Shown here: positions 10,312-49,113 of the stretch, piece by piece
Layout of the letters: each line of letters begins with the position of its first letter
Position numbering within the stretch: position 1 is the stretch's first letter
Program-made: the position numbers and the translations under genes
The notes under the pieces: generated by a model
Database searches by the model: none
What the model saw: only the letters and a program-made list of their open reading frames with translations
Told to the model about the DNA's origin: nothing
Source of the DNA: Oscillospiraceae bacterium
GTDB taxonomy: Bacteria; Bacillota; Clostridia; Oscillospirales; CAG-382
Direction of reading: 5' to 3'
DNA length: 64,000 nt
Assembly: GCA_015064895.1 (NCBI GenBank)
Contig: SVRI01000002.1
Coordinates: forward strand, 84,113 to 148,112

Positions 10312-10810
10312 AAGTCAGCGAGTTTTTTGCTTGCTGGCTTTTTTATATTATTCTTTCTGTACTTTTGCCCCGATGCAAAAGTACCAAAAAATCTCCACTC
10401 AAAAAGAGGGGATGGCTCATTCGGGAGGAATAAAGTACAAAAAGGCAAATTTTGACTAGGACAAATGAAACCAAACACTTCTACGAAGCCGTCAAAATTT
10501 GAACATCTACAAACTTCAATGATACTGCCGCCCTCATTCCGCTGACTTCCCCTCTTTCGCCGTGGTGGCTTAACTTCCCTCTCTTGGTGTTGGTGCAAAT
10601 CTGAAGTAAATTCGGTTGGTTGGATTGAATGTGTTCAGCCGATGTATCCCAAGCGATGCCGGGTGCGTTTTCGCGGAAATAAGGTTTGAAACTCTGTAAA
10701 CACTTACCCGCGTTGTGAGAGGTAAGCCGCCGCAGGTCGGGAAAGCCCGACCACCGCAGTGACGAAATACTCCTCTATGTACAAAGAAAGGCGTACCGAA
10801 GTACGCCTTA
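10312..10810 (+). repeat. family A large modular structured repeat, copy 1 (candidate ncRNA or MITE-like element)
   Basis: Collinear with the minus strand of 49111-48692 and partly with 16487-16716. Parts: H0 terminator-like hairpin 10312-10340; H1 gtacttttgc/gcaaaagtac 10359-10384; helix aaagagggga (10403-12) with tcccctcttt (10548-57); inner helix caaattttgac (10445-55) with gtcaaaatttg (10491-501); helix 10564-10583 with 10717-10733; hairpin gtcgggaaagcccgac 10736-51; terminal hairpin 10787-10810. Confidence 0.75.
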
Positions 10811-14641: not shown

Positions 14642-14649
14642 ATATTTCA

Positions 14650-14785
14650 CCTACTTTCTCTTTCGCAGAGAAAGTAGGCAAAGAGAACTCGCATTTTGCA
14701 CCTTTCTGCAAAGATTTAATATTCTGTTTATCACTCGATTGGTTTACCGTTCGACCGCCATATATCCAAGCGGTCGAACTCATTA
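14650..14785 (-). repeat. family B bipartite hairpin element, copy B1 (the entire whiA-dnaE intercistronic region)
   Basis: Minus-strand reading: TAATGAG, then hairpin 1 (gttcgaccg / loop cttggatatatgg / cggtcgaac, 14779-14749), about 70 nt, then hairpin 2 (cctactttctct / gcgaa / agagaaagtagg, 14678-14650). It aligns end to end with 21084-20947. Confidence 0.8.
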
Positions 14786-16486: not shown

Positions 16487-16810
16487 ATTTCTGTTCTTTT
16501 GTCCCGAAACAAAAGAACCAAAAATTCTCCACTCAAAAAGAGGGGATGGCTCATTCGGGAAAAGCAAAATGCAAAAAGGCAAATTTTGACTAGGACAAAT
16601 GAAACCAAATACTTCTACGAAGCCGTCAAAATTTGGGTATCGTCAAACTTCATTTATACTGCCGCCCGCCTTGCGCTGACTTCCCCTCTTTCGCCGTGGC
16701 GGCTTAACTCCTCTCACTGTTTGTGCGACACCAATGATTGGCGAACAAATAAAATTTCCCGTGAATTTGCTGTCGGGCTTTCCCGACCCGTGGCGGCTTA
16801 ACTCCTCTCA
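16487..16810 (+). repeat. family A modular structured repeat, copy 2
   Basis: H1 gttcttttgt/acaaaagaac at 16493-16518. Helix aaagagggga (16537-46) with tcccctcttt (16682-91). The 23-nt motif ccgtggcggcttaactcctctca occurs twice as a perfect direct repeat (16694-16716, 16788-16810). Hairpin gtcgggctttcccgac at 16772-87 is the inverse complement of 10736-51. Confidence 0.75.
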
Positions 16811-16866: not shown

Positions 16867-17058
16867 CAACTTGCTACATGCTACACAAAATTAAATTATT
16901 TTCACTGCTAATAGTGTGTATTTTTTTAGGTAAAAATGCACGCTCTATCCGTCATACTGTTAGTAGTGGATTGATTTTGTGTAGCAACAAGCGGAGCTGC
17001 GTTTTTCGTGTGTGGCTCTGTTTGGGCTACACACTTTTTTATTTTAGGAGGTATTTCC

Positions 17059-19080
17059 ATGAAAAAACGAGTTATTATTCTGTTATCACTCTTAATGTGT
17101 CTGTTTTTTGCTTTTTCCACATCTGCAACTGTAGTAGATTCCGGAACTTGCGGTGATAATTTAACATGGACTTTTGATGATATAGGAACGCTTACTATCA
17201 GTGGTACGGGGGATATGTATAATTGGCGGTTCGAAGATGCTGAGCCAGAGTACGATGCACCGTGGTATCGTTACAGAGAAACGATAGATAATGTTATTGT
17301 AGAAGCAGGTGTAACAAGCATAGGTAATCAGGCGTTTAGTTGCTTCCGACTTGTATTATATTATGAAAGCATAGGCGGTCCTCTTACAAGCATAAGCATT
17401 CCCGATACCGTGGTAAAAATCGGTGAACGGGCATTCGAACATTGTTCAAGCCTTGAATCAATAGTAATTCCAAACAGTGTAACCAGTATTGGAAATAGAG
17501 CGTTCAATTGTTGTACAAGCCTTAAAGAGATATTCATTCCTGCAAGTGTAACAAGCCTTGGACGTCAAGTGATCGGGGGACTAGTAAGCCAAGACGAGGT
17601 GATTTACGATTACGCTGAAGGAGACTTTGGCGGCACTGTACTCGGAGGTTGCACAAGTCTTGAAAGCATTACAGTTGATTCAAACAATAAAATGTATTCT
17701 AATGATGAAAGAGGTGTTTTATTTAATAAGGACAAAACAATACTTATTAAATACCCTATCGGAAATAAAGCAACTTCTTATAAAATCCCCGACGGCGTAA
17801 CAATCATTGGCAGAGGTGCATTCGAAGGTTGTTCAAATCTTAAGGAAATAATTATTCCTGAAGGTGTAACATGTATAAGCAGTTATGCATTCGAAGGTTG
17901 TTCAAATCTTAAGGAAATAATTATTCCTGAAAGCGTAATAAGCGTTGACTACGGGGCGTTCGAAGATTGCACAAACCTCGAAAGCGTTGATGTTGGAAAT
18001 AGCATAACAATCATTGATGAAAGTGCGTTTGACGGTTGCACAAGCCTTAAAAACATAACTGTTGCTGAAAATAACGAGTTATATTCAAAAGATGAAAGAG
18101 GTGTTTTGTTTAATAAGGACAAAACAATACTTATAAAATATCCAGTTAAAATTGAAGGAACTTCTTATGAAATTCCCGACGGTGTAACAAAAATTAACGA
18201 TTACGCATTCAAAGGATGCACAAGTCTTGAAGAAGTATTAATTCCTGACGGTGTAACAAGTATTGGATATTCTGCTTTCGAGGATTGCACAAGACTTAAA
18301 GCAATAGTCATTCCCGACAGTGTAACGGGTATTGGTGAACGTGCGTTTTATGGTTGTACAAATCTTAAAAGTGTAAAAATTGGTAGTAGAGTAACAAATA
18401 TAGGTGGTATGTACGCATTTGCATTTTGCACAAGTCTTGAATCGATAGAAATTCCCGAAAGCGTCACATACGTAGGGCAATTTTCATTTATGTATTGTAG
18501 GAATCTAAAAAAAGCAACTGTTTTGAGCAGAAATGCAGAATTCAGTTTTAGTATAGATGACGTGTTTGGACGTTCAAATCCCGTCATCTACGGCTACAAA
18601 GGTTCAACGGCGGAAACGGAAGCAAAAGAATACAACCGCCCGTTTGTTGCCCTTTCCGCCACCCCCACAAACGCAAAAGTACTCATCAACGGCAAAGAAG
18701 TTGCATTTACAGCCTACAACATCGGCGGCAACAACTACTTCAAACTCCGTGATGTTGCAATGGCACTAAACGGCAGTGAAAAGAATTTCAACGTAGGTTG
18801 GGACAGCACCAACAATGCAATTTCTCTTACTTCAAACCAAAGCTACACATCGGTCGGCGGCGAACTCATTGTTGATGCAAATGCTACCTCAACAGAACCT
18901 ATCGTTACAAATTCAAGAGTTTACAAGGATAGCGAGCCCGTTTCATTCATTGCGTTCAACATCGGTGGAAACAACTACTTCAAGCTTCGTGATATTGGCA
19001 AAGCTTTTGATTTCGGTATCGGTTGGGACAATGAGACTAAAACCATTACCATTGACACAAGCATAGGTTATACCGAATAA
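17059..19080 (+). CDS. secreted BspA-type leucine-rich-repeat surface protein with two C-terminal stalk-like repeats
   Basis: ORF 17008..19080 trimmed to ATG 17059 (AGGAGG 7 nt upstream; signal peptide MKKRVIILLSLLMCLFFAFSTSA). About 15 units of the ~23-aa repeat IP..V..IG..AF..C..L. The C-terminus has two copies of a module ..NGK/S..V.F.A(Y/F)NIGGNNYFKLRD.. resembling copper-amine-oxidase-N-like stalk domains. Confidence 0.8.
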   Translation: MKKRVIILLSLLMCLFFAFSTSATVVDSGTCGDNLTWTFDDIGTLTISGTGDMYNWRFEDAEPEYDAPWYRYRETIDNVIVEAGVTSIGNQAFSCFRLVLYYESIGGPLTSISIPDTVVKIGERAFEHCSSLESIVIPNSVTSIGNRAFNCCTSLKEIFIPASVTSLGRQVIGGLVSQDEVIYDYAEGDFGGTVLGGCTSLESITVDSNNKMYSNDERGVLFNKDKTILIKYPIGNKATSYKIPDGVTIIGRGAFEGCSNLKEIIIPEGVTCISSYAFEGCSNLKEIIIPESVISVDYGAFEDCTNLESVDVGNSITIIDESAFDGCTSLKNITVAENNELYSKDERGVLFNKDKTILIKYPVKIEGTSYEIPDGVTKINDYAFKGCTSLEEVLIPDGVTSIGYSAFEDCTRLKAIVIPDSVTGIGERAFYGCTNLKSVKIGSRVTNIGGMYAFAFCTSLESIEIPESVTYVGQFSFMYCRNLKKATVLSRNAEFSFSIDDVFGRSNPVIYGYKGSTAETEAKEYNRPFVALSATPTNAKVLINGKEVAFTAYNIGGNNYFKLRDVAMALNGSEKNFNVGWDSTNNAISLTSNQSYTSVGGELIVDANATSTEPIVTNSRVYKDSEPVSFIAFNIGGNNYFKLRDIGKAFDFGIGWDNETKTITIDTSIGYTE

Positions 19081-20767: not shown

Positions 20768-20946
20768 GGTAAATACAGTCCTTTCTTTCGGATATGACAA
20801 TACCGCCATCACGCAAAAAAGCATGACGGCGGCAGAAAGTACGTATTTACTCTTTTAAAAGGCGACAGTGAGCCGAAGTGAATACGTCTTTCTGCGATTT
20901 ATGTAATTGTAAAGGCAACTTCGCCCGTCCGTACTCATTCTACTCA

Positions 20947-21084
20947 CCTACTTTTTCTTTCGGAGAAAAAGTAGGCAAAAAGAACTCACACTTAGCTCGT
21001 TCCTGCCATTATCTTTCTCCGATTTTTTGTTTCTCAAATTGTTTTACGTCTGTGTGCCATAAATCCAAGCACACAGGCTCATTA
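20947..21084 (-). repeat. family B bipartite hairpin element, copy B2 (in the mgtE leader, just after mutS)
   Basis: Minus-strand reading: TAATGAG, then hairpin 1 (gcctgtgtg / cttggatttatgg / cacacagac, 21078-21048), then hairpin 2 (cctactttttct / ccgaa / agaaaaagtagg, 20975-20947), followed by TGA. Confidence 0.8.
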
Positions 21085-23716: not shown

Positions 23717-23802
23717 TTTTTTACCCGACCTTTTTTTCTGAAATATAATTTTGGCATCTCCAAAAATGCCAAATGATGAATTAGGAATAAGCAAAGAGTT
23801 TG

Positions 23803-23940
23803 GTCGGTCGGATTTATGCCGACCAAACGGGGTTATTTATGCGACACCGATGGCATGTTTTCGACAAAACATGCCCCGTGAATTCTTTTCTTTTTTGCTG
23901 ACTTTTTTCTTTTCAGCAAAGAAAAAAGTCAGTGGCAGCC
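23803..23940 (+). repeat. family B bipartite hairpin element, copy B3 (opposite orientation to B1 and B2)
   Basis: Plus-strand reading: GAG, then hairpin 1 (tttggtcgg / tcggatttatg / ccgaccaaa, 23807-35), ACGGGG, a middle hairpin at 23860-83 closed by acgggg/ccccgt, then hairpin 2 (ctgacttttttcttt / tcagc / aaagaaaaaagtcag, 23906-40). Confidence 0.7.
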
Positions 23941-24369
23941 TTTGCAAGTTGCGCAGTTATGGGTACATTCCGCACCGCCCTCAACACCGTCCTCATAATC
24001 GTCGTACTGCTTTTCACTTGTAAGATTTTCGGGGCTGATATAGGATGTGATTGTCATATTGATGGCATTAAGAAGAATATTGAGGTTTTCTTCTGCCGTG
24101 TTGTATGCCATCATTTCGGGGTGGTTTGTAATTTCCGAATAGAGTGCTTCCATGCGTGCCGAAACCGCATCAAGAAGCTGCATATCGTTTTCGTCGCCTT
24201 TTGAGCTTTCTATATCGTAAATCTTCTTCTGTACGTTAAATTCGTCAAGCTTTGCCTTGAGTGCCGCGTTTGCTTTGCATGCATCTCTTGTTTCACAAAA
24301 TGTTTTATACTGTGTGCTTTCAGCGAGTTTTTCGCCGAGAGCTCTGGCAAGATTCATCATTTCTATCAT
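23929..24369 (-). CDS. YlbF/YmcA (Ric) family regulator-like protein with a Cys-rich C-terminal tail
   Basis: 146 aa. The helical pattern ARALGEKLAESTQYKTF..AKLDEFNVQKKIY..YSEITNHPEMMAYNTAEENLNILLNAIN fits the YlbF family as I remember it. The tail ECTHNCATCKGCH has four Cys. Family assignment is by pattern only. Confidence 0.6.
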   Translation of the reverse strand: MIEMMNLARALGEKLAESTQYKTFCETRDACKANAALKAKLDEFNVQKKIYDIESSKGDENDMQLLDAVSARMEALYSEITNHPEMMAYNTAEENLNILLNAINMTITSYISPENLTSEKQYDDYEDGVEGGAECTHNCATCKGCH

Positions 24370-26704: not shown

Positions 26705-26745
26705 CTTGAGTTTGCATCGTAGCGTTTATGCGATGCAAACGGGGT
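26705..26745 (+). repeat. family B hairpin-1 module only, copy B4
   Basis: tGAGtttgcatcg / tagcgtttatg / cgatgcaaaCGGGGTTA (stem 26709-17 with 26729-37). The flanks and loop match 23803-23845, but the stem sequence is different and still complementary. Confidence 0.65.
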
Positions 26746-29632: not shown

Positions 29633-29676
29633 AGCAATTGTAATGCTTTTTATTTAATTCAAAGGAGTTGTTTGTT

Positions 29677-31089
29677 TTGAAATTGAAACGAATATTATTT
29701 GTTTTACTTGCATTTATTTCACTTCTTGCCATTTGCTCCTGCAAAAAAGATGAAGACAAAAAATCTACATACGTTCCTGTAGCAGGTGACGAATACTGGC
29801 TCGGTCACAATCCTCAGGAAGACATGAAAGGTTATCAATTCAGAATTCTTTCCAGAAAAGGCATGAAAAGCGATCAGTATGCTGAAGAACAGACCGGTGA
29901 CATTATCAACGATGCCATTTACAAGAGGAACGAAACTGTAAAGGGTTATTTCAACTGTGATGTCGTTTCAATTGAAAGCTCATCAGGCAGTGCCGATGAT
30001 GCCATCAACTCCATTCTTGCGGGTGATGACCAGTATGACATCATTTTCCCTCACTCAAGATCAGCATTCCAGTATGCTGTTCAGGATGCTCTTGTAAATT
30101 TCAATGACATAAAAACCATCCACCTTGACAAGTCCTGGTGGTCGCAGGATATTATTGATTCATGTAATGTAAACGGACATCTTTACGTTCTTGACGGCGA
30201 TATCTCCACACACAGACTTCAGTATGCATTCTGTATGTTCTTCAACAAGAGAATCTTTGACGAACTCGGTATTGAATATCCTTACCGGATGGCTCTTGAC
30301 GGCACATGGACATTTGATGAGTTTTCAAAGCTTGTAAAGAAGGGTTCAAAGGACCTCAACGGTGACGGTATTCTTAAGCCCGAAGACGACCAGTTCGGTT
30401 ATTACACAAGTAACTGGTACGGACCTATCAACGTACTTTATACGGGCGGTCAGAGAATTTATTCCAAAAATGCGGCAGGAGTACCTTATATATCTCTCAA
30501 TTCCAACAAGACTGTGGAAATTTTCTCAGAATTCTTTAAGCTTACCGATTCCGACGATGTCTATATTTACAATCAGATAAGCAATGAAAGCGACCCTGCA
30601 GGAAATCCCTTCAATGAAGGCCGTTCAATGTTTGCAGACAAGGGCCTTGGTAATGCGAAGGCTATGAGAAGCATGAACGACGAATTCGGTATTCTCCCTT
30701 GGCCCAAGTTCACCGAGGAAGACGTATATGCAACTGTAGTAAACGGTCATGCAAGCCTTATGGTTATGCCTATAACCGTTGCTGACAAACAGAAATCCGG
30801 TAAAATTATCGAAGCACTCTGTGCTATCGGTAACAAGGAAGTTATTCCTGCATTCTACGATGTATCACTTAAAACAAAATTCTCTAGAGACGCCGAATCC
30901 GAAGCAATGATTGATATCATAAAAGATTCCATCATCTACGACCTCGGTTACGTTTCCGGCGGTGTATTGAATTCTGTAGGTTCGTCACTTTCCAAGAGCA
31001 GCAACCATGACTTCGCTCAATTCTATGCTCAGAACGAATCCAAGGCTCAGTCAGACCTTCAGAGCTTCCTTGAAGCTTACGGTTCATAA
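29677..31089 (+). CDS. ABC-type extracellular solute-binding lipoprotein (family-1 SBP-like), paralog 1
   Basis: ORF 29668..31089. TTG 29677 is the best start (AAAGGAG 9 nt upstream) and gives MKLKRILFVLLAFISLLAICSC with a lipobox. SBP-like features: NKRIFDELGIEYP..DGTWTFDEFSKLVKKGSKDLNGDG. Confidence 0.8.
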   Translation: MKLKRILFVLLAFISLLAICSCKKDEDKKSTYVPVAGDEYWLGHNPQEDMKGYQFRILSRKGMKSDQYAEEQTGDIINDAIYKRNETVKGYFNCDVVSIESSSGSADDAINSILAGDDQYDIIFPHSRSAFQYAVQDALVNFNDIKTIHLDKSWWSQDIIDSCNVNGHLYVLDGDISTHRLQYAFCMFFNKRIFDELGIEYPYRMALDGTWTFDEFSKLVKKGSKDLNGDGILKPEDDQFGYYTSNWYGPINVLYTGGQRIYSKNAAGVPYISLNSNKTVEIFSEFFKLTDSDDVYIYNQISNESDPAGNPFNEGRSMFADKGLGNAKAMRSMNDEFGILPWPKFTEEDVYATVVNGHASLMVMPITVADKQKSGKIIEALCAIGNKEVIPAFYDVSLKTKFSRDAESEAMIDIIKDSIIYDLGYVSGGVLNSVGSSLSKSSNHDFAQFYAQNESKAQSDLQSFLEAYGS

Positions 31090-31101
31090 TATTAAGATTT
31101 G

Positions 31102-31134
31102 AAAGCCCGTTTTCCAACGGGCTTTTCTTTTTTT
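31102..31134 (+). terminator. Rho-independent terminator after SBP paralog 1
   Basis: aaagcccgt (31102-10) pairs with acgggcttt (31117-25), followed by tcttttttt. Confidence 0.8.
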
Positions 31135-31225
31135 CGATTTATTATTTTTTTACAATTTGTTATCCGCATTCTAACAAAGTGGTGTTAATGTATAGTGAGA
31201 GTTAGGCTTTTTAGGGGGTAATATT

Positions 31226-32632
31226 TTGAATATTAAGAGTATTTTTTTAATCCTTCTTGCGGTATTATCTATTTTTGCTGTCAGCTCATGCAAGAAGAAA
31301 GACTCCGGAATTTCTACATACGTTCCTGTTGCCGGTGATGAGTACTGGCTGGGTCACAATCCGCAGGAAGATATGGACGGATATCAATTCAGAATCCTTT
31401 CGAGAAAAGGCATGAAAAGTGACCAGTATGCAGAAGAAGAAACCGGCGATATTATCAATGATGCAGTTTTCAAAAGAAATGAAACGGTAAAGGGTTATTT
31501 CAACTGCGACATCATTACAATAGAAAGCTCTACAAACAAGGCCGACGATGCCATCAACTCAATCCTTGCAGGCGATGACCAGTATGACATTCTTCTTCCC
31601 CACTCAAGATCGGCTTTCCAGTATGCAATCCAGGATGCACTTGTTAACTTCAACGATGTAAAGACAATCGATACATCCAAGGATTGGTGGTCGAAGGATA
31701 TTATTGACTCCTGTAACATAAACGGTTATCTCTACGTTCTTGACGGTGACATCTCTACCCACAGACTTGAATACGGCTTTGCCATGTACTTCAACAAGAG
31801 GATTTTTGACGAGCTTGGTCTTGAATATCCTTATCAGATGGCTATTGACGGTACATGGACATTTGACGAATTTTCAAAGCTCGTAAAGAAGGGTTCAAAG
31901 GACCTCAACGGCGACGGTCTCATCAAGCCCGAGGACGACCAGTACGGTTACTATTCATGGCATGCCTTCGGACCCATTCAGGTGCTTTATACGGGCGGTC
32001 AGAGAATCTATTCCAAGAGTGCTACGGGTGTTCCCTATCTTTCTTTAAACTCAACAAAAACTTTAAATCTTTATTCCGATTTCTTCAGACTTTGCGATTC
32101 CGATGACGTATTACTCTGTGCTGCACAGAATGCTCCGTCAGAAAATTTATTCACTGCAGGACGTGCAATGTTCGCAGACAACGGTCTCGGTCAGGCAAAA
32201 ACATTTAGAAACATGAGCGATGAATTCGGTATTCTCCCCTGGCCCAAGTACACAGCAGAAGATGAATACAAGACAGTTATCAACGGTCATGCAAGCCTTC
32301 TCGTTATGCCCATCACTGTTCCGGACAAGCAAAAATCGGGCAAGATTATCGAAGCACTCTGTGCTCTTGGCAACAAAGAAGTAGTTCCTGCTTTCTATGA
32401 TGTATCTCTTAAAACAAAGTTTTCGAGAGACGCCGAATCCGAAGCAATGATTGATATTATCAGAGACTCTCTCATATATGACCTCGGCTATGTTTCGGGC
32501 GGTACATTCCAGAATGTCGGTGAAAGACTTGCATCAATGGGTAACCGTGACTTTGCCTCCTATTATGCACAGAACGAATCCAAGGCTCAGACAGATCTTC
32601 AGAACTTCCTCGCATCCTACGGCAAATTATAA
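31226..32632 (+). CDS. ABC-type extracellular solute-binding lipoprotein, paralog 2
   Basis: 468 aa. TTG start with AGGGGG 7 nt upstream. Signal and lipobox MNIKSIFLILLAVLSIFAVSSC. Full-length alignment with paralog 1. Confidence 0.8.
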   Translation: MNIKSIFLILLAVLSIFAVSSCKKKDSGISTYVPVAGDEYWLGHNPQEDMDGYQFRILSRKGMKSDQYAEEETGDIINDAVFKRNETVKGYFNCDIITIESSTNKADDAINSILAGDDQYDILLPHSRSAFQYAIQDALVNFNDVKTIDTSKDWWSKDIIDSCNINGYLYVLDGDISTHRLEYGFAMYFNKRIFDELGLEYPYQMAIDGTWTFDEFSKLVKKGSKDLNGDGLIKPEDDQYGYYSWHAFGPIQVLYTGGQRIYSKSATGVPYLSLNSTKTLNLYSDFFRLCDSDDVLLCAAQNAPSENLFTAGRAMFADNGLGQAKTFRNMSDEFGILPWPKYTAEDEYKTVINGHASLLVMPITVPDKQKSGKIIEALCALGNKEVVPAFYDVSLKTKFSRDAESEAMIDIIRDSLIYDLGYVSGGTFQNVGERLASMGNRDFASYYAQNESKAQTDLQNFLASYGKL

Positions 32633-32644
32633 AATGCAACAGCA

Positions 32645-32677
32645 AAAGGCTTGTCTTACGGCAAGCCTTTATTTTTG
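32645..32677 (+). terminator. Rho-independent terminator after SBP paralog 2
   Basis: aaaggcttg (32645-53) pairs with caagccttt (32662-70), followed by atttttg. Confidence 0.8.
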
Positions 32678-32706
32678 TACATTTTTTATTCTTTACAAAT
32701 TAGATG

Positions 32707-32735
32707 TTGACTACAGTGAAAAAACTGTGTAAAAT
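32707..32735 (+). promoter_or_regulatory. promoter of SBP paralog 3
   Basis: TTGACT (32707-12), 17 nt, then TAAAAT (32730-35). Confidence 0.6.
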
Positions 32736-32769
32736 ACAATATGAAGTTCATATTTAGGAGGTATATCCT

Positions 32770-34179
32770 TTGAGAATCAAAAGATTATCATGTATTCTTC
32801 TTGCCGTAGCATCTTTATTTATAATCAGTGCGTGCAAGAAAGATGACAAAGACAGAACCACATACGTTCCTGTAGCCGGTGACGAATATTGGTTAGGTCA
32901 CATTGAACAGGAAGACATGCAGGGATATCAGTTCAGAATACTTTCAAGAAAAGGCATGGTAGATGACCAGTATGTTGAAAAAGAAACAGGCGATATCATC
33001 AACGATGCCGTCTACAAGAGAAATGAAACGGTAAAGGGATATCTTAATATCGACATAGTTTCAATCGAAAGTTCCACTGACACCGCGTCCGACGCAATCA
33101 ACTCAATTCTTGCGGGCGATGACCAGTATGACGTAATGTTCCCCCACTCAAGAGCGGCTTTCCAGTATGCTGTTCAGGATGCACTTGTAAACTTCAATGA
33201 CATTAAAACAATTGACACCTCTAAACCCTGGTGGTCACAGGATATCATAGATTCATGTAATGTAAACGGACATCTTTATGTTCTTGACGGCGACATTCAG
33301 ACTGACAGACTTTTCTATGCGTTCTGTATGTTCTTCAACAAGAGAATCTTTGACGAGCTGGGTGTTGAATATCCTTACCAGATGGCACTTGACGGCACAT
33401 GGACATTTGATGAGTTTTCAAAGCTTGTAAAGAAGGGCTCAAAAGACCTCAACGGTGACGGTTTGCTCAAGCAAGAAGAAGACCAGCTCGGCTACTACAC
33501 AAGAGAATGGTACGGTCCTATCCAGGCACTTTATTCGGGTGGACAAAGAATCTATTCCAAGGATGCAAGAGGCATACCCGTTCTCTCACTCAACTCCAAT
33601 AAAACAGTTGATATTTTCTCCGATTTCTTCAAGCTCGCCGACTCAGATGACGTTTTCCTTCAGTTGACTCCCGGAAGACTTGCAAAGGAAGACTTATTCC
33701 CTGTAGGACGTGCAATGTTTGCAGACAGAGGTCTCGGCTCTGCCCAGGCACTCAGAAGTATGGATGACGAATTCGGTATTCTCCCCTGGCCAAAGTTTTC
33801 TGCCGATGATGAATACAAGACGGTGGTTAACGGTCATGCATGTTTACTTACAATGCCCATCACTGTTCCCGATAAGCAGAAGTCAGGTAAGATTATTGAA
33901 GCCCTCTGTGCCCTCGGCAACAAGGAAGTACTTCCTGCATTCTATGAAGTATCACTAAAGACCAAGTTCTCTAGAGATGCCGAATCCGAAAAGATGATTG
34001 ACATTATCAAGGACTCCATTATCTACGACCTCGGTTACGTTTCCGGCGGTACAATGAACTCGGTCGGTGCTACTCTTGCTCAGAGTAACAACCATGATTT
34101 CTCTCAGTTCTATGCACAGAATGAATCAAAGGCTCAGACAGACCTTCAGAGTTTCCTTAAATCCTACGGTAAAATGTAA
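32770..34179 (+). CDS. ABC-type extracellular solute-binding lipoprotein, paralog 3
   Basis: 469 aa. TTG start with AGGAGG 8 nt upstream. MRIKRLSCILLAVASLFIISAC. Confidence 0.8.
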   Translation: MRIKRLSCILLAVASLFIISACKKDDKDRTTYVPVAGDEYWLGHIEQEDMQGYQFRILSRKGMVDDQYVEKETGDIINDAVYKRNETVKGYLNIDIVSIESSTDTASDAINSILAGDDQYDVMFPHSRAAFQYAVQDALVNFNDIKTIDTSKPWWSQDIIDSCNVNGHLYVLDGDIQTDRLFYAFCMFFNKRIFDELGVEYPYQMALDGTWTFDEFSKLVKKGSKDLNGDGLLKQEEDQLGYYTREWYGPIQALYSGGQRIYSKDARGIPVLSLNSNKTVDIFSDFFKLADSDDVFLQLTPGRLAKEDLFPVGRAMFADRGLGSAQALRSMDDEFGILPWPKFSADDEYKTVVNGHACLLTMPITVPDKQKSGKIIEALCALGNKEVLPAFYEVSLKTKFSRDAESEKMIDIIKDSIIYDLGYVSGGTMNSVGATLAQSNNHDFSQFYAQNESKAQTDLQSFLKSYGKM

Positions 34180-34184
34180 TTTTC

Positions 34185-34211
34185 AAACTCCCCTTTTTGG
34201 GGAGTTTTTTT
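34185..34211 (+). terminator. Rho-independent terminator after SBP paralog 3
   Basis: aaactcccc/ggggagttt followed by a T-run. Nearly identical to the terminator at 36104-36132. Confidence 0.85.
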
Positions 34212-34212
34212 A

Positions 34213-34241
34213 TTGACTCATTCATGAAACAGTGATATAAT
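34213..34241 (+). promoter_or_regulatory. promoter of SBP paralog 4
   Basis: TTGACT (34213-18), 17 nt, then TATAAT (34236-41). Confidence 0.65.
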
Positions 34242-34265
34242 CTATTACAATAAGGAGGTTTGATT

Positions 34266-36098
34266 ATGAAAAACATTCGCAAACTGACACTTACATTACT
34301 TTTAATCTCACTTATAGTTTCAATTATCGCATGTACTTCTGCAGATACAAAGGAAACAGATCCGGAGGATGCTGTATGGGAAGGCTATGATGATGTTGAG
34401 TTTGTTAAGTTTCTGGGAAACAGCAGTGCAGATGAGGTAGAAGTCACGGTAAAGGAAGGTTGGGGCAAGTCGGATGAGCTTAACGAAGAAGATGACTTAT
34501 CCGAGGATGCAAAGGCTTATACATACACCTATGAGCGTGTTTCGGGCAAAGATATTGTAGAAAAAATCCACTTTTTTATGATTCTTGAAGACAATGAGCT
34601 TACGCCTGCGGGTTGTTACAACGAAACCACCCATGAGGAGCTGGACAAAGGCGACACCGAGGATATACTCGAAGGGCTGATTGACGAATTTGAACTGTAC
34701 AACGAAAAGAAAAGCTCAAGCAACAATAGTAATTATCCCGACAATAACAATGCAGAATCTTTACGTCCCAACAATACAACATATCTTCCTAATTCAGGCT
34801 ATGAAAACTGGCTTGGTCACATTGAACAGGAAAACATGGACGGTTATACGTTCAGAATCCTTTCAAGAAAAGGCATGGTAGATGACCAGTATGTTGAAGA
34901 AGAAACAGGTGACATTGTCAACGATGCTGTCTACAAAAGAAACGAAATTGTAAAGGGTTACTTCAATATTGACATTGTTTCAATCGAAAGCTCCACTGAC
35001 ACAGCTTCCGACGCAATCAACTCAATTCTTGCGGGCGATGACCAGTACGATATCATGTTCCCTCACTCAAGAACAGCATTCCAGTATGCTGTTCAGGATG
35101 CTCTTGTCAATTTCAATGATGTATACACAATCGATACATCAAAAGAATGGTGGTCACAGGATATTGTTGACTCATGTAACGTAAACGGTAACCTTTACGT
35201 ACTTGACGGTGATATCTCAACTCACAGACTTTATTACTGCTTTGCAATGTACTTCAACAAGAGAATATTTGATGAACTCTGTCTTGAATATCCCTATCAG
35301 ATGGCTCTTGACGGCACATGGACATTTGACGAATTCTCAAAGCTTGTAAAGAAGGGTTCAAAGGACCTCAACGGTGACGGTCTTCTCAAGCAGGAAGATG
35401 ACCAGCTCGGCTATTATACAAGAGAATGGTTCGGTGCAATTCAGGTTCTTTATTCAGGTAACCAGAGAATCTACTCAAAGGATGCAAGAGGAATTCCGAG
35501 ACTTTCGCTTAATACACCTAAAACAGTTCAGTTGTTTTCCGACTTCTTTAAACTGACCGATTCCGATGATGTATTCATGCAGATTTCACCCGGAAATCTC
35601 GCAAAGGAAGACTTGTTCCCTGCAGGTCGTGCAATGTTTGCAGACAAGGGTCTCGGCTCTGCTCAATCACTCAGAAGCATGGACGATGAATTCGGTATCC
35701 TTCCCTGGCCTAAGTTCTCTGAAGAAGATGAGTATGAAACGATTGTAAACGGTCATGCAAGCCTTATGGTTATGCCCATCACTGTTCCGGACAAACAAAA
35801 ATCCGGTAAGATTGTAGAAGCACTCTGTGCCATCGGTAACAAGGAAGTTATTCCTGCATTCTACGAAGTATCACTTAAAACAAAATTCTCTAGAGACGCC
35901 GAATCCGAAGCAATGTTTGATATCATAAAAGATTCCATCATCTACGACCTCGGTTACGTTTCGGGAGGTACAATGAACTCTGTTGGTGCTACTCTTGCTC
36001 AGAGAGACAACCACGATTTCTCTCAGTTCTATGCACAGAATGAATCAAAGGCTCAGTCAGACCTTCAGAACTTCTTAAGCTCTTACGGTAAAATGTAA
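34266..36098 (+). CDS. ABC-type extracellular solute-binding lipoprotein, paralog 4, with an extra ~150-aa N-terminal region
   Basis: ATG 34266 (GGAGG 7 nt upstream). MKNIRKLTLTLLLISLIVSIIAC. About 150 aa of acidic, unique sequence and an S/N-rich linker precede the SBP body shared with the other paralogs (from ..YLPNSGYENWLGH). Confidence 0.8.
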   Translation: MKNIRKLTLTLLLISLIVSIIACTSADTKETDPEDAVWEGYDDVEFVKFLGNSSADEVEVTVKEGWGKSDELNEEDDLSEDAKAYTYTYERVSGKDIVEKIHFFMILEDNELTPAGCYNETTHEELDKGDTEDILEGLIDEFELYNEKKSSSNNSNYPDNNNAESLRPNNTTYLPNSGYENWLGHIEQENMDGYTFRILSRKGMVDDQYVEEETGDIVNDAVYKRNEIVKGYFNIDIVSIESSTDTASDAINSILAGDDQYDIMFPHSRTAFQYAVQDALVNFNDVYTIDTSKEWWSQDIVDSCNVNGNLYVLDGDISTHRLYYCFAMYFNKRIFDELCLEYPYQMALDGTWTFDEFSKLVKKGSKDLNGDGLLKQEDDQLGYYTREWFGAIQVLYSGNQRIYSKDARGIPRLSLNTPKTVQLFSDFFKLTDSDDVFMQISPGNLAKEDLFPAGRAMFADKGLGSAQSLRSMDDEFGILPWPKFSEEDEYETIVNGHASLMVMPITVPDKQKSGKIVEALCAIGNKEVIPAFYEVSLKTKFSRDAESEAMFDIIKDSIIYDLGYVSGGTMNSVGATLAQRDNHDFSQFYAQNESKAQSDLQNFLSSYGKM

Positions 36099-36103
36099 TT
36101 TTC

Positions 36104-36132
36104 AAACTCCCCTTTTTTGGGGAGTTTTTCTT
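36104..36132 (+). terminator. Rho-independent terminator after SBP paralog 4
   Basis: aaactcccc-tttttt-ggggagttt followed by ttc tt. Confidence 0.8.
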
Positions 36133-36182
36133 ATTTCAGCAATACCAAACAACTTTCTTAATATTGATGAAACAAAAAATCG

Positions 36183-36211
36183 TTGATATGTTAACAGAAT
36201 TTTGGTATAGT
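36183..36211 (+). promoter_or_regulatory. promoter of SBP paralog 5
   Basis: TTGATA (36183-88), 17 nt, then TATAGT (36206-11). Confidence 0.6.
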
Positions 36212-36250
36212 TATGGTGTATTGCAAGAATTTATTAAGGAGGTACATACC

Positions 36251-37660
36251 TTGAAAATCAAAAGATTGCTTTGTTTTGCTGCCCTGATTCTCTCAGTTGT
36301 TGCTTTCAGTGCATGTAAAAACGAGGATGAAGAAATATCCAAGTACATTCCTAATGCCGGCGATGAATATTGGCTCGGTCACATCCCACAGGAAAACATG
36401 GACGGTTACGAATTCAGAATCCTTTCAAGAAAAGGCATGGTAGATGACCAGTATGTTGAAGAAGAAACAGGTGATATCATCAACGATGCCGTTTTTAAAA
36501 GAAATGAAACAGTAAAGGGTTACTTTAACATTGACATTGTTTCAATTGAAAGCTCCTCCAATACTGCGGATGATGCTATCAGTTCCATCCTTGCAGGTGA
36601 TGACCAGTATGACATCATGCTGCCCCACTCAAGAACAGCATTCCAGTATGCTATTCAGGATGCACTCGTAAACTTCAACGATATCAAAACAATCGATACA
36701 TCAAAAGAATGGTGGTCTCCCGATATTATCGACTCTTGTAACGTAAACGGACATCTTTACGTTCTCGACGGCGATATTTCTACTCACAGACTTTACTACT
36801 GCTTTGCGATGTACTTCAACAAGAGAATCTTTGATGAACTCGGTCTTGAATATCCTTATCAGATGGTTTTGGATAATAACTGGACATTTGACGAATTTTC
36901 AAAGCTCGTAAAGAAGGGTTCAAAGGACCTCAACGGTGACGGTCTTCTCAAGCAGGAGGACGACCAGCTCGGCTATTATACAAGAGAATGGTTCGGTGCA
37001 ATTCAGGTTCTTTATGCAGGTAACCAGAGAATTTACGCAAAGGATGCCGCAGGCATTCCCAGACTTACACTTAACTCTCCTAAGACAGTTCAGGTATTCT
37101 CTGACTTCTTCAAGCTCGCCGACTCCGACGATGTATTCCTTCAGATTTCACCCGGTAAGGTTGCTAAGGAAGACTTGTTCCCTGCAGGTCGTGCAATGTT
37201 CGCCGATAATGACCTTGGTCAGGCTCAGCAGCTCAGAGCCATGGATGACGAATTCGGTATTCTCCCCTGGCCTAAGTTCTCTGCCGATGATAAGTATGAA
37301 ACAGTTGTAAACGGTCATGCAAGCCTTCTTACAATGCCTATCACGGTTCCCGATAAGCAGAAGTCAGGCAAGATTATTGAAGCGCTTTGTGCTCTCGGTA
37401 ATAAGGAAGTTATTCCCGCGTTCTACGAAGTATCTCTTAAGACAAAGTTCTCAAGAGATACAGAATCCGAAAAGATGATTGACATTATCAAGGACTCTAT
37501 CATCTACGACCTCGGTTACGTTTCCGGCGGTACAATGAACTCTGTTGGTGCTACTCTTGCAAATCAAAGCAATCATGACTTTGCTCAGTTCTATGCTCAG
37601 AACGAATCAAAGGCTCAGGTTGACCTTCAGAACTTCTTAAGCTCTTACGGTAAAATGTAA
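36251..37660 (+). CDS. ABC-type extracellular solute-binding lipoprotein, paralog 5
   Basis: ORF 36164..37660 trimmed to TTG 36251 (AAGGAGG 8 nt upstream), which gives MKIKRLLCFAALILSVVAFSAC, matching the N-termini of the other paralogs. The upstream part of the ORF overlaps the promoter. Confidence 0.8.
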   Translation: MKIKRLLCFAALILSVVAFSACKNEDEEISKYIPNAGDEYWLGHIPQENMDGYEFRILSRKGMVDDQYVEEETGDIINDAVFKRNETVKGYFNIDIVSIESSSNTADDAISSILAGDDQYDIMLPHSRTAFQYAIQDALVNFNDIKTIDTSKEWWSPDIIDSCNVNGHLYVLDGDISTHRLYYCFAMYFNKRIFDELGLEYPYQMVLDNNWTFDEFSKLVKKGSKDLNGDGLLKQEDDQLGYYTREWFGAIQVLYAGNQRIYAKDAAGIPRLTLNSPKTVQVFSDFFKLADSDDVFLQISPGKVAKEDLFPAGRAMFADNDLGQAQQLRAMDDEFGILPWPKFSADDKYETVVNGHASLLTMPITVPDKQKSGKIIEALCALGNKEVIPAFYEVSLKTKFSRDTESEKMIDIIKDSIIYDLGYVSGGTMNSVGATLANQSNHDFAQFYAQNESKAQVDLQNFLSSYGKM

Positions 37661-37671
37661 AACATAATATT

Positions 37672-37706
37672 AAAACCTCATGCTTTAATCAGCATGAGGT
37701 TTTTTC
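37672..37706 (+). terminator. Rho-independent terminator after SBP paralog 5
   Basis: acctcatgct (37675-84) pairs with agcatgaggt (37691-700), followed by ttttt. Confidence 0.85.
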
Positions 37707-37716
37707 TGTATAAATT

Positions 37717-38160
37717 AAAACCGAAACTAACGTGTAGTCTCGGTTTTGCCGCGGGGCTTCCCCTTACAAAACACATAGTCTTTTGCCTGAGTTTGTCCGC
37801 TTTCGTTTATGGCGGACAAACGGTACTTCACTCGGGCAATAAAAAAACAAAACCGAAACTAGAGTATAGTCTCGGTTTTGCCGCGGGGCTTCTCCTTACA
37901 AAACACATAGTCTTTTGCCTAAGTTTGTCCGCTTTCGTTTATGGCGGACAAACGGTGATTCACTCGGGCAATAAAAAAATAAACCGAAACTAGAGTATAG
38001 TCTCGGTTTTGCCGTGGGGCTTCCCCTTACAAAACACATAGTCATTTGCCTGAGTTTGTCCGCTTTCGTTTATGGCGGACAAACGGTGCTTCACTCGGGC
38101 AATAAAAAAATAAACCGAAACCAACGTGTAGTCTCGGTTTTGCCGTGGGGCTTCCCCCAC
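37717..38160. repeat. tandem array, 3 full units plus 1 partial unit of 131-132 bp, directly abutting the 3' end of tRNA-Val
   Basis: Unit starts (aaaccgaaac..) at 37718, 37850, 37981 and 38112. Units are near-identical. Each holds an 11-bp hairpin aaaccgaaact/agtctcggttt (on the minus strand this is followed by atttttttatt, which is terminator-like) and a family B hairpin-1 module (tttgtccgc / tttcgtttatg / gcggacaaa at 37792-37820, 37924-52 and 38055-83). Confidence 0.9.
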
Positions 38161-38236
38161 TGGTGGACGATAAGGAACTCGAATCCCTGACCACTCGCAC
38201 GTCAAGCGAGTGCTCTACCAACTGAGCTAATCGTCC
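38161..38236 (-). tRNA. tRNA-Val (anticodon GAC), CCA encoded
   Basis: Manual cloverleaf: acceptor GGACGAT/ATCGTCC; D-arm GCTC-AGTTGGTA-GAGC; anticodon arm CTCGC-TTGACGT-GCGAG (GAC at 34-36); variable loop TGGTC; T-arm AGGGA-TTCGAGT-TCCTT; then A-CCA. Total 76 nt. Confidence 0.9.
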
Positions 38237-38251: not shown

Positions 38252-38280
38252 ATTTTAACATAAAGAGGATGGATTGTCAA
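38252..38280 (-). promoter_or_regulatory. promoter of tRNA-Val
   Basis: On the minus strand: TTGACA (38280-75), 17 nt, then TAAAAT (38257-52), 15 nt upstream of the tRNA 5' end. Confidence 0.7.
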
Positions 38281-38339: not shown

Positions 38340-38376
38340 TAGATAAACTATACTATAATCAATGGGAGTAATATTG

Positions 38377-39906
38377 ATGAAAAAACTTAGATTTTCCGTA
38401 TTTGTCTCAGTATTTTTACTTGTACTTGCTGTTTCGGCAGGTGCTTCGGGCTTTGAAAAGAGCCGTACATATTCCTCTAATTTCAATGATATACAGGAAG
38501 GCAAATGGTTTACCCAAAGTGTAAAGGATGTGTATGAGCTTGCTCTTATGGAAGGTGTTACATCCGACACCTTTGATGCCGACTCTCAGATGAGCGTTGC
38601 TCAGAGTATTACTATTGCCGCACGTCTTCACAGCATTTATAATAACACCGAGATTCCCGAATTTTCGGGCAATACATGGTATATGAAGTATGTGAACTAC
38701 TGTAAAGAAAACGGCATTATAGATGAAAACCAGTTTAATTCATACGGCCGTCCCGTTATGGCCTTTGAAATGGTGCAGCTTTTTGCTTCTGCTCTTCCCG
38801 AAGAATATTTCCCAAAAATCAATGACATCACATATATTCAGGATGTGCGTGAAGATATGAGCTTTGCAGACGATGTTTTTATGTTCTACAGAGCAGGTGT
38901 TCTTAACGGTAATGACAGCTATGGCACATTTCTTCCGATGAGTGAAATTACAAGAAAAAGAGCTGCCGTTCTTTTAGCAAGAACAGTTCTTCCCGAACAA
39001 AGACTCAAATACTCCCTTGAAACAAAACGTGAAACATATACTCTCGATGAAGTTTTTGCAATTGTTGATAAAGAAACCGTAAGGGACACGCTTGATGACG
39101 TTGAGCTTATCAGTGCGGATTCCTACAGCGTATCTGCCGCAGAATACAGATATTATTCCGGTATTTCAAACGGCGATGCCGCAAAAATCGAAGGCTTGGT
39201 AAAATCTTCGGCTGCCAAGATGAATATAATCAGGCAGGTTGTACCTCAGGTGTCGTTTGATGTTCTTTGCGACATTTTAAGCACTTACTACGATGCCAGA
39301 ACCGATAACTACGGCACTTCCTCTTACTTTGACGCATTGGATGCACAGCGTCTCAGCGACAGTTTTTATGCAAAGCTTGTGGCAATAAATGAATTATATT
39401 ACCTTGCCGTAAAGGCAAGTGCAGAATCTGTATCTCAGGATGATGTTTACGACTATGCGTTGGAAAATGATTTTGTTTGCGAAAGGGAAATTTTTATTGC
39501 AAAGTCAACTCCCGATGCATATAAGATTATTCTTCAGGCATACCTCGACCTTGCAAACGGTGCCGATTTTGAAGAGTTGCTTGTCGAAATCGGTCAGGAT
39601 CCAAGCATGAAAACACGTCAGAGCGGTTACTATTTCACCAAAGGCTGGAAAGCAAAGGAAATCGAGAACGCCGTTTACGGTCTAAAGGAAGGCGAAATAA
39701 GCGAAATAGTTACTACACCTTTGGGATATCACATCATCAAAAGACTTCCCATAAAGAAGAATGAACTCTTAGCAAGTCCCGATTATACTCTGATTGCGGC
39801 AAATACTGCAACCGAGCAGTTTAACGAAAAGCTGATTGAGGCACAGAACAGTGTTAATCTCACTTATGTTGAAAACTTTGAAGGACTTTCTGCCATACTG
39901 AGATAA
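38377..39906 (+). CDS. secreted PpiC/parvulin-type peptidyl-prolyl isomerase (PrsA/SurA-like) with N-terminal SLH-like repeats
   Basis: ORF 38362..39906 trimmed to ATG 38377 (GGGAG 8 nt upstream; signal peptide MKKLRFSVFVSVFLLVLAVSAGA with no lipobox). Two SLH-like segments (FNDIQEGKWFTQSV..GVTSDTFDADSQMSVAQSITIAARL; FADDVFMFYRAGVLNGNDSYGTFLPMSEITRKRAAVLLAR). C-terminal parvulin motif GYYFTKGW..YGLKEGEISEIVTTPLGYHIIK. Confidence 0.65.
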   Translation: MKKLRFSVFVSVFLLVLAVSAGASGFEKSRTYSSNFNDIQEGKWFTQSVKDVYELALMEGVTSDTFDADSQMSVAQSITIAARLHSIYNNTEIPEFSGNTWYMKYVNYCKENGIIDENQFNSYGRPVMAFEMVQLFASALPEEYFPKINDITYIQDVREDMSFADDVFMFYRAGVLNGNDSYGTFLPMSEITRKRAAVLLARTVLPEQRLKYSLETKRETYTLDEVFAIVDKETVRDTLDDVELISADSYSVSAAEYRYYSGISNGDAAKIEGLVKSSAAKMNIIRQVVPQVSFDVLCDILSTYYDARTDNYGTSSYFDALDAQRLSDSFYAKLVAINELYYLAVKASAESVSQDDVYDYALENDFVCEREIFIAKSTPDAYKIILQAYLDLANGADFEELLVEIGQDPSMKTRQSGYYFTKGWKAKEIENAVYGLKEGEISEIVTTPLGYHIIKRLPIKKNELLASPDYTLIAANTATEQFNEKLIEAQNSVNLTYVENFEGLSAILR

Positions 39907-48487: not shown

Positions 48488-48512
48488 AAGGCGTACTGCG
48501 GTACGCCTTTTG
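48488..48512 (+). terminator. Rho-independent terminator after alr (also the terminal hairpin module of the family A repeat)
   Basis: aaggcgtac (48488-96) pairs with gtacgcctt (48501-09), followed by ttgtcg. A homologous hairpin sits at 10787-10810. Confidence 0.65.
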
Positions 48513-49113
48513 TCGTTCTTTTGTCCCGAAACAAAAGAACCAAAAATTCTCCGCTCAAAAGGAGAGAGGGCTCGGTTGAGGTTATGGCAAAGACGGAAAA
48601 GGTTCGTCTTGACCACGGGATGGGTCAAGACTCAGGTTCGCAATAAGTAAGCTTTCGCAATCTCAACCTACGCTGACTTCTCTCCTTTGCCGCGGCGGCT
48701 TACCTCTCACAACGCGGGTAAGTGTTTACAGGATTTAAGCCTTAATTATCGCGAAAATGCCAAAGACATAACTTGGTATACTCTGTTTAACCACATTTAA
48801 TCCAACCAACCGAATTAACTTTGAATTTGCACCAACACCAAGAGAGAGGAGTTAAGCCGCCACGGCGAAAGAGGGGAAGTTAGCGGAATGAGGGCGGCAG
48901 TATCATTTAAGTTTGAAGAAATTCAAATTTTGACGGCTTGGTAGAAGTAGCTTGTTTCATTTGTCCTAGTCAAAATTTGCCTTTTGTACTTTGCTTTTCC
49001 CGAATGAGCCATCCCCTCTTGTTGAGTGGGCGTTTTTGGTACTTTTGTCGATACAAAAGTACAGAAAAAGAATAAACACAAAAAAGCCAGCAAGCACAAA
49101 CTTACTGGCTTTT
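48513..49113. repeat. family A modular structured repeat, copy 3: two diverged units in inverted orientation around a shared 135-nt core
   Basis: Unit b is on the plus strand at 48515-48708. The core is 48709-48843. Unit a is on the minus strand at 49062-48844, with the H0 hairpin at 49084-49111. See the findings for helices and covariation. Confidence 0.8.

Follow-up and report, generated by a model that had tools for sequence, protein, structure and literature searches.

A tandem array of 131-132-nt units was found directly behind a tRNA-Val gene in the window, a 64,000-nt stretch of an Oscillospiraceae chromosome (contig SVRI01000002.1, positions 84,113 to 148,112). The array is probably a minisatellite of variable copy number made of a lineage-specific modular repeat, in which the first copy would terminate the tRNA and the extra copies would be redundant. 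It has a regular anatomy, belongs to a dispersed family whose hairpins covary and which keeps to a position rule at gene 3' ends, and is polymorphic in copy number. Tandem Repeats Finder placed it at 37718-38157 with a period of 131, 3.4 copies, 94% matches and 0 indels (score 766), and a second repeat finder recovered a hairpin block of 55 nt four times, spaced by 132, 131 and 131, and a longer block three times. Both results confirmed the 3.4-unit array after tRNA-Val that had been described in an earlier sequence-only reading of this DNA. The identity between units was 92-94%. The array ended 3 nt from the tRNA-Val 3' end, and the module H3 began one base after the CCA. On the minus strand, the CCA was followed by G, the hairpin H3 (TGGGGGAAGCCCCA), then AAACCGAGACTA-CACGT-TGGTTTCGGTTT, and then ATTTTTTTATT. 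The 12-bp stem of a second hairpin, T, was formed by AAACCGAGACTA and TGGTTTCGGTTT, followed by AUUUUUUUAUU in the copy nearest tRNA-Val. In the sense of the tRNA, each unit ran from H3 through T (12-16 bp plus U-run) and an extended hairpin around the module H1 to a spacer of about 20 nt. The features of the array and its immediate flanks were as follows.

37718-38157, no strand assigned: whole tandem array (Tandem Repeats Finder; repeat families D13 and D18)
37718-37849, 37850-37980 and 37981-38111, with a partial unit at 38112-38157, plus strand: array units, unit length 131-132 nt
38112-38140, minus strand: hairpin T, tRNA-proximal (terminator scan; -26.8 kcal/mol when folded with H3; then AUUUUUUUAUU)
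37981-38009, minus strand: hairpin T, copy 2, with U-run, in the unit missing from the 2.4-copy allele (L124)
37850-37878, minus strand: hairpin T, copy 3, with U-run (terminator scan)
37718-37746, minus strand: hairpin T, tRNA-distal, then UUUUAAUUUAUAC; not scored as a terminator
38145-38157, no strand assigned: H3 module, a short G+C-rich hairpin GTGGGGCTTCCCC plus CAC, beside the tRNA end (regular expression; fold)
38014-38026, 37883-37895 and 37751-37763, no strand assigned: further H3 copies of the array (regular-expression coordinates)
38052-38086, plus strand: H1 module GAGTTTG-TCCGC-TTTCG-TTTATG-GCGGA-CAAACGG, the signature hairpin of the dispersed family
37921-37955 (AAGTTTG variant) and 37789-37823, plus strand: further H1 copies of the array
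38046-38102, plus strand: extended H1 hairpin, with outer stem TTGCCTGAGT / ACTCGGGCAA around H1 (fold)
37915-37971 and 37783-37839, plus strand: further extended H1 copies
38161-38236, minus strand: tRNA-Val(GAC), CCA encoded (ARAGORN; Rfam tRNA, 66.6 bits)
38252-38280, minus strand: sigma-70-type promoter of tRNA-Val, TTGACA-17 nt-TAAAAT with a TG extension (promoter scan, 11/12 matches)
37672-37703, plus strand: two-way terminator hairpin of the upstream convergent gene (36164-37660), scored on both strands, at the far edge of the array

The hairpin with U-run that is typical of an intrinsic terminator was present in three of the four T copies, downstream of tRNA-Val in its own sense, and the terminator scan of the minus strand scored the same number as terminator-like, with folds of -20 to -27 kcal/mol. 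The tRNA-distal copy had no clean T-run. The outer T copies had the loop ACGTG, the inner ones GAGTA, a difference that had also been described before. The tRNA-proximal copy probably acts as the terminator of tRNA-Val; the unit that contains it would end the transcript, and the remaining units would be redundant. Its repeated H3-T blocks would allow the array to gain and lose units, either by unequal recombination or by slippage during replication. The blocks at both unit ends (H3-T in the window, 20 nt of H3 in a sister-species array, L118) would be the expected substrate of such events, and the gap between converging transcription units would be a site that tolerates such DNA.

Alternatively, the array could be a selected multi-terminator or insulator, in which serial terminators would stop the read-through from tRNA-Val into the converging cluster and prevent polymerase collisions. 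The three hairpins with a U-run in the tRNA sense, the near-consensus promoter of tRNA-Val, and the site between converging units are all consistent with this explanation, and at the level of sequence signals the multi-terminator proposal of the earlier reading held. However, about 100 nt of each unit have no part in termination, and the converging gene has its own two-way terminator. The comparison of copy number among relatives bore on the same question. Orthologous loci were reached by following the neighbouring PPIase/SLH gene (38362-39906) into other assemblies, and a metagenome scan with the PPIase alignment yielded only three useful orthologous loci. The state of the site in each species was as follows.

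Window species (PPIase 100%), window, L088 and L089: 3.4 x 131-132 nt, with L088 and L089 identical to the window over 800 nt
Window species, flanks 99.2-99.8% identical, L124: 2.4 x 132 nt
Sister species (PPIase 50%), L097 and L098: 4.0 x 123 nt and 2.0 x 121 nt
Sister species (PPIase 47%), L117 and L118: 3.2 x 124 nt and 1.2 copies
Three other relatives, L095, L100 and L121-L123: single plain terminator after tRNA-Val

The copy number varied within each of the three array-bearing species, the outcome that had been named beforehand as a pointer to a neutral minisatellite. The array of L124 was shorter than that of the window by exactly 131 nt and lacked one inner unit, which bore out the suggested duplication of an inner pair. 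Nothing indicated a need for further copies, because alleles of 1.2 to 4 copies coexisted and relatives had no array, and the extra copies would thus appear to be dispensable. These data also weakened the selected multi-terminator. Three species had arrays at this site, and a hairpin with a T-run was part of the L097 units as well, as serial terminators would lead one to expect. Nevertheless, members of one species could differ in copy number (alleles of 1.2 to 4.0 copies in all), a single terminator was all that three related species had, and the unit hairpin of L117 was followed only by TTTG, a weak U-run. Selection for serial termination is therefore unlikely. In one of the relatives (L121-L123), a TATCTG microsatellite lay behind the terminator, about 55-125 nt past the tRNA-Val CCA in the tRNA sense, with 11 copies in one assembly and 9 in another.

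By its alignments, the array unit is not specific to this locus and is a copy of a dispersed mosaic family, which the sequence-only reading had missed, although it had pointed to a module shared with two other sites. The module was present at both of them, with the coordinates corrected to 23797-23830 and 26709-26742 (from 23807-35 and 26709-37). The H1 pattern GAGTTTG-N10-TTTATG-N5-CAAACGG occurred 5 times in the window against an expectation of 0.09 (starts 23797, 26709, 37790, 37922, and 38053), and elements of the H1 family were found at 5 loci within these 64 kb. The idea that H1 is not enriched over chance outside the array locus is contradicted by the present data. When one genome per species was scanned, the exact 35-nt pattern was found in at least 86 stretches; all of those listed came from metagenome-assembled genomes of related uncultured Clostridia, from the guts of ruminants and other animals, often with dozens of copies per genome. 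One of the carriers, RGIG8792, was syntenic with the window at 84-88% identity. The copies were intergenic, with a sharp boundary on the GAGTTTG side and a modular continuation on the opposite side. In type 1 (about 107 nt), H1 was followed by H2a, a variable hairpin between GCGACACC and CCGTGAAT, and by a terminal H3, a G+C hairpin with many covarying sequence versions. In type 2 (about 145 nt), H1 was followed by H2b (TTCGGGCA...GTCCCGAA) and H4 (CTTACTTTCTC...GAGAAAGTAAG). The modules H1, H2a or H2b, H3, and H4 were found in differing combinations, and the elements across the family were about 107-150 nt long with three hairpins. Outside the array, the window held the following copies.

23796-23945, plus strand: copy B1, with H1, H2a and an H4-type hairpin, between a ylbF-like gene and mutS; orthologous copy in L057
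26708-26816, plus strand: copy B2, type 1, between a methyltransferase gene and hsp33
14627-14781, minus strand: degenerate type-2 copy, H1 outer stem GTTCG/CGAAC, between whiA and dnaE (nhmmer; sequence; Pfam)
20944-21070, minus strand: degenerate type-2 copy directly after the mutS stop codon (nhmmer; sequence)

With profile hidden Markov models built without window sequences, the units of the array fell on positions 1-90 of type 2 (E values of 1.2e-16 to 2.7e-18), and the T hairpin therefore takes the place of H2b. By blastn, only the stretch of about 57 nt made of TTGCCCGAGTGAAGCA plus H1 was recognisably common to the array units and many dispersed copies. The arrays of the sister species were drawn from other parts of the family and had no canonical H1: the L097 and L098 units corresponded to type-2 positions 46-138 (H2b-H4), including their own hairpin with a T-run, and the L117 and L118 units corresponded to type-1 positions 36-109, with H3 abutting the CCA. 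An orphan H2a-H3 piece of a type-1 element, with H1 absent, lay at 16718-16789 and was fused to a repeat of about 230 nt that is described below.

The five pairs of the inner H1 stem showed 20, 18, 8, 7, and 20 double compensatory changes among 43 type-1 elements, with almost no broken pairs, and by this pattern of substitutions the H1 hairpin is under selection. The outer stem and the loop TTTATG were invariant in the same elements, both being fixed by the search pattern. The extended H1 hairpin folded with -27.6 kcal/mol on the plus strand and -21.4 kcal/mol on the minus strand, and the array units folded much better than shuffled sequence (z of about -8). In minimum-energy folds the GAGTTTG strand had more G-U pairs than its complement (206 vs 106 and 158 vs 86), a count that is biased because this strand is G/T-rich.

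Folding and covariation are also what tandem small RNA genes, or RNAs cut from the tRNA read-through, would display, each unit giving an RNA of about 100 nt (extended H1 plus H3) that ends at T. Each unit does end in a hairpin of terminator type, and the dispersed copies are probably transcribed as 3' trailers because most of them share the sense of the upstream gene. However, a hairpin in DNA would covary equally, the copy number was polymorphic, and any read-through would first have to pass a strong terminator. The promoter scan of the array showed no promoter-like site on either strand, in agreement with the earlier reading, and by eye only hexamer pairs with 4/6 and 3/6 matches were seen. 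The Rfam search that had been proposed for the unit gave no family: in the window and in five other array-bearing loci, only tRNA and tmRNA were matched at gathering scores, and permissive searches of the array and of copy B1 gave chance-level matches only. With neither a promoter nor an Rfam match, nothing was found in support of the tandem small RNA genes suggested earlier, and RNA products of the units are quite improbable.

The pattern of invariant outer bases around a covarying inner stem resembles recognition of shape plus sequence, although the invariance is partly forced by the search pattern. A protein-binding array on DNA or RNA would have H1 as its putative site and would concentrate a protein, for which a RAYT-like mobilising nuclease, a nucleoid protein, and an RNA-binding protein would be candidates. 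REP/BIME elements bind several host proteins (PMC2817692). However, no candidate protein was identified, and the sister-species arrays lack the canonical H1. A crude search that covered every open reading frame (ORF) in about 750 kb of element-bearing loci was negative for the HUH...Y motif of RAYT (HUH/Y1) transposases. Binding of a protein as the role of the array is thus very improbable. An ORF between two inverted H1 copies in another genome (L029) looked like an ordinary enzyme when its sequence was read by eye.

The dispersed copies kept to a position rule at gene 3' ends. The gene on the H3/H4 side was transcribed into the element in 31 of 39 type-1 and 22 of 27 type-2 cases, and several of the exceptions were false start-codon calls. 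The distance from H1 to the stop codon had its peak at 72-80 nt among type-1 elements and at 94-102 nt among type-2 elements, equal to the element lengths. In about two thirds of the cases, in a list inspected by eye with no formal control, the terminal hairpin contained the stop codon or came within 3 nt of it; manual inspection was used since automatic folding for the hairpin-to-stop distance was confounded by pairs within the coding part. The TGA of the ylbF-like gene formed part of the terminal hairpin stem of B1, and the methyltransferase ORF extended into copy B2. The array of tRNA-Val, which abuts the CCA and one G, had the orientation of the family rule, with the tRNA replacing the protein gene. 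Several genes were seen to draw their last codons from an element of the H1 family (loci L002-L087; 23796-23945 and 26708-26816 in the window).

A rarer opposite orientation was also observed, in which the H4 hairpin of a type-2 element stood just before the start codon of the next gene (14627-14781 and 20944-21070, both on the minus strand, and L002, L039, and L069). In the copy at 14627-14781, the 3' arm of the H4 hairpin was 8 nt ahead of the dnaE ATG. This arm (AAGTAGGTG or AGGAGG) resembled a ribosome-binding site, which the H4 hairpin could mask in this orientation. At one orthologous intergenic site with flanks about 90% identical (L022 1140-1800 and L036), the two genomes carried different elements, one of type 2 and one of type 1, and the last codons of the adjacent gene differed in step with the element type. 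Elements therefore turn over at fixed sites. The B2 site was likewise filled by different subtypes in the window and in L057. A search for pairs of empty and filled orthologous sites returned only such sites with different subtypes, namely these two.

These placements would also fit a family that is a mobile or recombining element, homing to exact gene 3' ends (stop codon or tRNA CCA) through a putative protein that recognises H1, with arrays recording repeated activity at a preferred site rather than passive duplication; otherwise, the hairpins abutting stop codons could form a genome-wide layer of 3'-untranslated-region control acting on termination, mRNA decay, or ribosome release. Such a broader role of the family is a rather doubtful proposition.

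Several observations weigh against the minisatellite with a single terminating copy. Arrays occurred at exactly the tRNA-Val site in three of the six related species, and this recurrence could reflect selection for something there, beyond tolerance. The hairpin and U-run were intact in three of the four T copies, although intact T signals say little either way because the array is young (92-94% identity). The crude motif search described above found no mobilising enzyme. A manual count of single mismatches in the stems gave a mixed picture, since H1 favoured the non-GAGTTTG strand (7 vs 2) and H3 favoured the GAGTTTG strand (4 vs 0). Termination at the proximal copy and the lack of need for the others are both points that we infer from sequence. 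Finally, all of the sequences came from metagenomes assembled from short reads, a procedure in which near-identical repeats can be collapsed or expanded.

For the same reason, an array or copy number produced by mis-assembly had to be considered, and several contigs indeed broke exactly at tRNA-Val or at the array (L090, L091-094, and L099). Against this, the 3.4-copy form was identical in two samples, whose independent assemblies agreed over 800 nt, and the 2.4-copy form differed by one clean unit. In addition, exactly the same array-derived ORF was present in 17 contigs, the units were distinguished by diagnostic substitutions, and comparable arrays were found in independent species and samples. 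An assembly artefact is hardly credible. The ORF of 99 aa in the window (37694-37993) had its start ATG within the terminator hairpin of the upstream gene and had no homologue but itself among 5.8 billion clustered proteins, which upheld the earlier view that it is an artefact of the repeats.

The H1 family is analogous to REP/BIME, BOX, and SPRITE elements. REP/BIME are high-copy extragenic hairpins in mosaics with other short motifs (PMC3733652, PMC2817692). Tandem reiteration of REP clusters together with flanking DNA is known, and REP ends often supply stop codons (PMC3733652). The H1 family likewise is a high-copy extragenic covarying palindrome in a mosaic, near or overlapping stop codons, with tandem clusters and a copy number that varies between strains. 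It differs in that the H1 flanks GAGTTTG/CAAACGG and the H3 stems have no GTAG or CGTC tag, the REP tag of PMC3733652; GTAGG is found at the end of some H4 variants, where it belongs to the stem. Moreover, all of the arrays were head-to-tail direct repeats, whereas REPs in BIME or REPIN alternate in orientation, and the elements were longer (about 107-150 nt, three hairpins), had no RAYT in the search given above, and belonged to a Clostridia lineage. Clostridia and Firmicutes are unmentioned in the REP survey PMC3733652.

BOX elements (boxA-boxB(n)-boxC) are built of modules and vary in the number of boxB copies, and spurious ORFs arise from their large arrays (PMC3049150). The likeness is one of architecture only: a Firmicute family, hairpin-forming composite modules, a variable tandem number, and spurious ORFs from arrays. 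In the present case the whole composite unit was repeated, whereas in BOX it is one inner module. SPRITE is a dispersed terminator-like repeat with a long hairpin and a U-rich tract near the 3' ends of coding sequences, and was proposed to be a co-opted terminator (PMC3049150). The dispersed repeat described here also has a hairpin with a U-run close to the 3' ends of coding sequences, but this combination was found only in the subtypes of the window and L097, most type-1 and type-2 copies being without it, and SPRITE has not been reported as tandem arrays. With an ordinary tRNA terminator the array shares the tRNA-proximal block of H3 plus T, which is all that L095, L100, and L121 have; the difference is that here the terminator block lies within a 131-nt unit repeated 3.4 times.

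Other candidates were rejected. A miniature inverted-repeat transposable element did not fit, as the two ends differ (GAGTTTG against the H3 or H4 hairpin), terminal inverted repeats were absent, and no flanking duplication was seen at the boundaries examined. A CRISPR array, with repeats of 24-48 nt and unique spacers, did not fit either, since the sequence between the H1 copies was itself repeated at 92-94% identity. In type III toxin-antitoxin systems, a ToxI-like RNA is encoded by repeats of about 34-36 nt in tandem, placed immediately before the gene of an endoribonuclease toxin. A ToxI-type antitoxin was rejected, with an array period of 131 nt and flanks formed by a tRNA and the end of a converging gene. 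An integron attC site, a tRNA-derived element, and a remnant of an integrase attachment site were also rejected. No tRNA fragment was present in the repeats, which stop 3 nt before the tRNA. Because of its differences from REP elements and because it lacks the terminal inverted repeats of the inverted-repeat transposable elements, the H1 family was placed outside every named family. The array is an ordinary variable repeat, and the underlying family is an undescribed one of a familiar type.

The array accounts for a spurious gene call of 99 aa and for the contig breaks at tRNA-Val, and the family accounts for several odd C-termini of genes that run into elements. As a ready variable locus, the array could serve strain tracking in this uncultured gut lineage. 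The family represents an undescribed and strongly structured repeat system of Clostridia, with a covarying hairpin, fixed flanks, and a habit of sitting exactly at gene 3' ends, and is relevant to how REP-like elements arise and move outside proteobacteria. The array itself is of modest interest, and the placement of the family at gene ends is somewhat more interesting.

A second dispersed repeat of about 230 nt was found at 10354-10584, 16488-16718, and 48507-48711, and inverted at about 48850-49060. It begins with the hairpin GTTCTTTTGTCCCGAAACAAAAGAAC, ends with CCCCTCTTTCGCCGTGGCGGCTTAAC, and had no Rfam match. It was also present in the loci of related genomes, often immediately to the left of H1 elements. 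Short octamer-like repeat runs (AATGCGGAGTGCGGAATG... or GTTAGGAGTTAGGA...) stood immediately to the left of some H1 elements in L057 (1900-1950), L023, L033, and L046. In a contig classed as viral (L001 9646-10100, IMGVR_UViG_3300031555_010637), a 163-nt tandem pair and a third H1 element lay between two small genes, which from sequence alone were judged to be membrane or holin-like, with a tmRNA gene about 3 kb off. This site may be a junction between prophage and host, and H1 repeats would then perhaps be present in prophages as well.

The window as a whole is an ordinary stretch of chromosome, with genes for DnaE, WhiA, MgtE, MutS, MiaB, Hsp33, PFK, an HtrA-like protease, alanine racemase, FtsH, FtsK, and a topoisomerase. 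The interval 29668-37660 was occupied by a tandem cluster of five paralogs (about 470-610 aa, 70-87% identical as DNA), which was kept beside tRNA-Val in sister species. No Pfam or NCBIfam match was obtained for the five paralogs, and the last of them had a marginal match to an arabino-oligosaccharide-binding protein (E = 0.0011). The array had been said to border on the terminator of the last solute-binding-protein paralog; the two-way terminator at 37672-37703 was confirmed, whereas the solute-binding-protein identity of the cluster is plausible but weakly supported. The interval 20830-20945, which separates the element behind mutS from an mgtE-like gene, contained an ORF of 26 codons and a hairpin-rich leader, in which no M-box or other Rfam family was matched at the gathering threshold. 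The 69-nt repeats at 17398-18468, within the ORF 17008-19080, were coding and unrelated to the intergenic repeats, and encoded BspA-type leucine-rich repeats (Pfam LRR_5, E = 3.6e-87).

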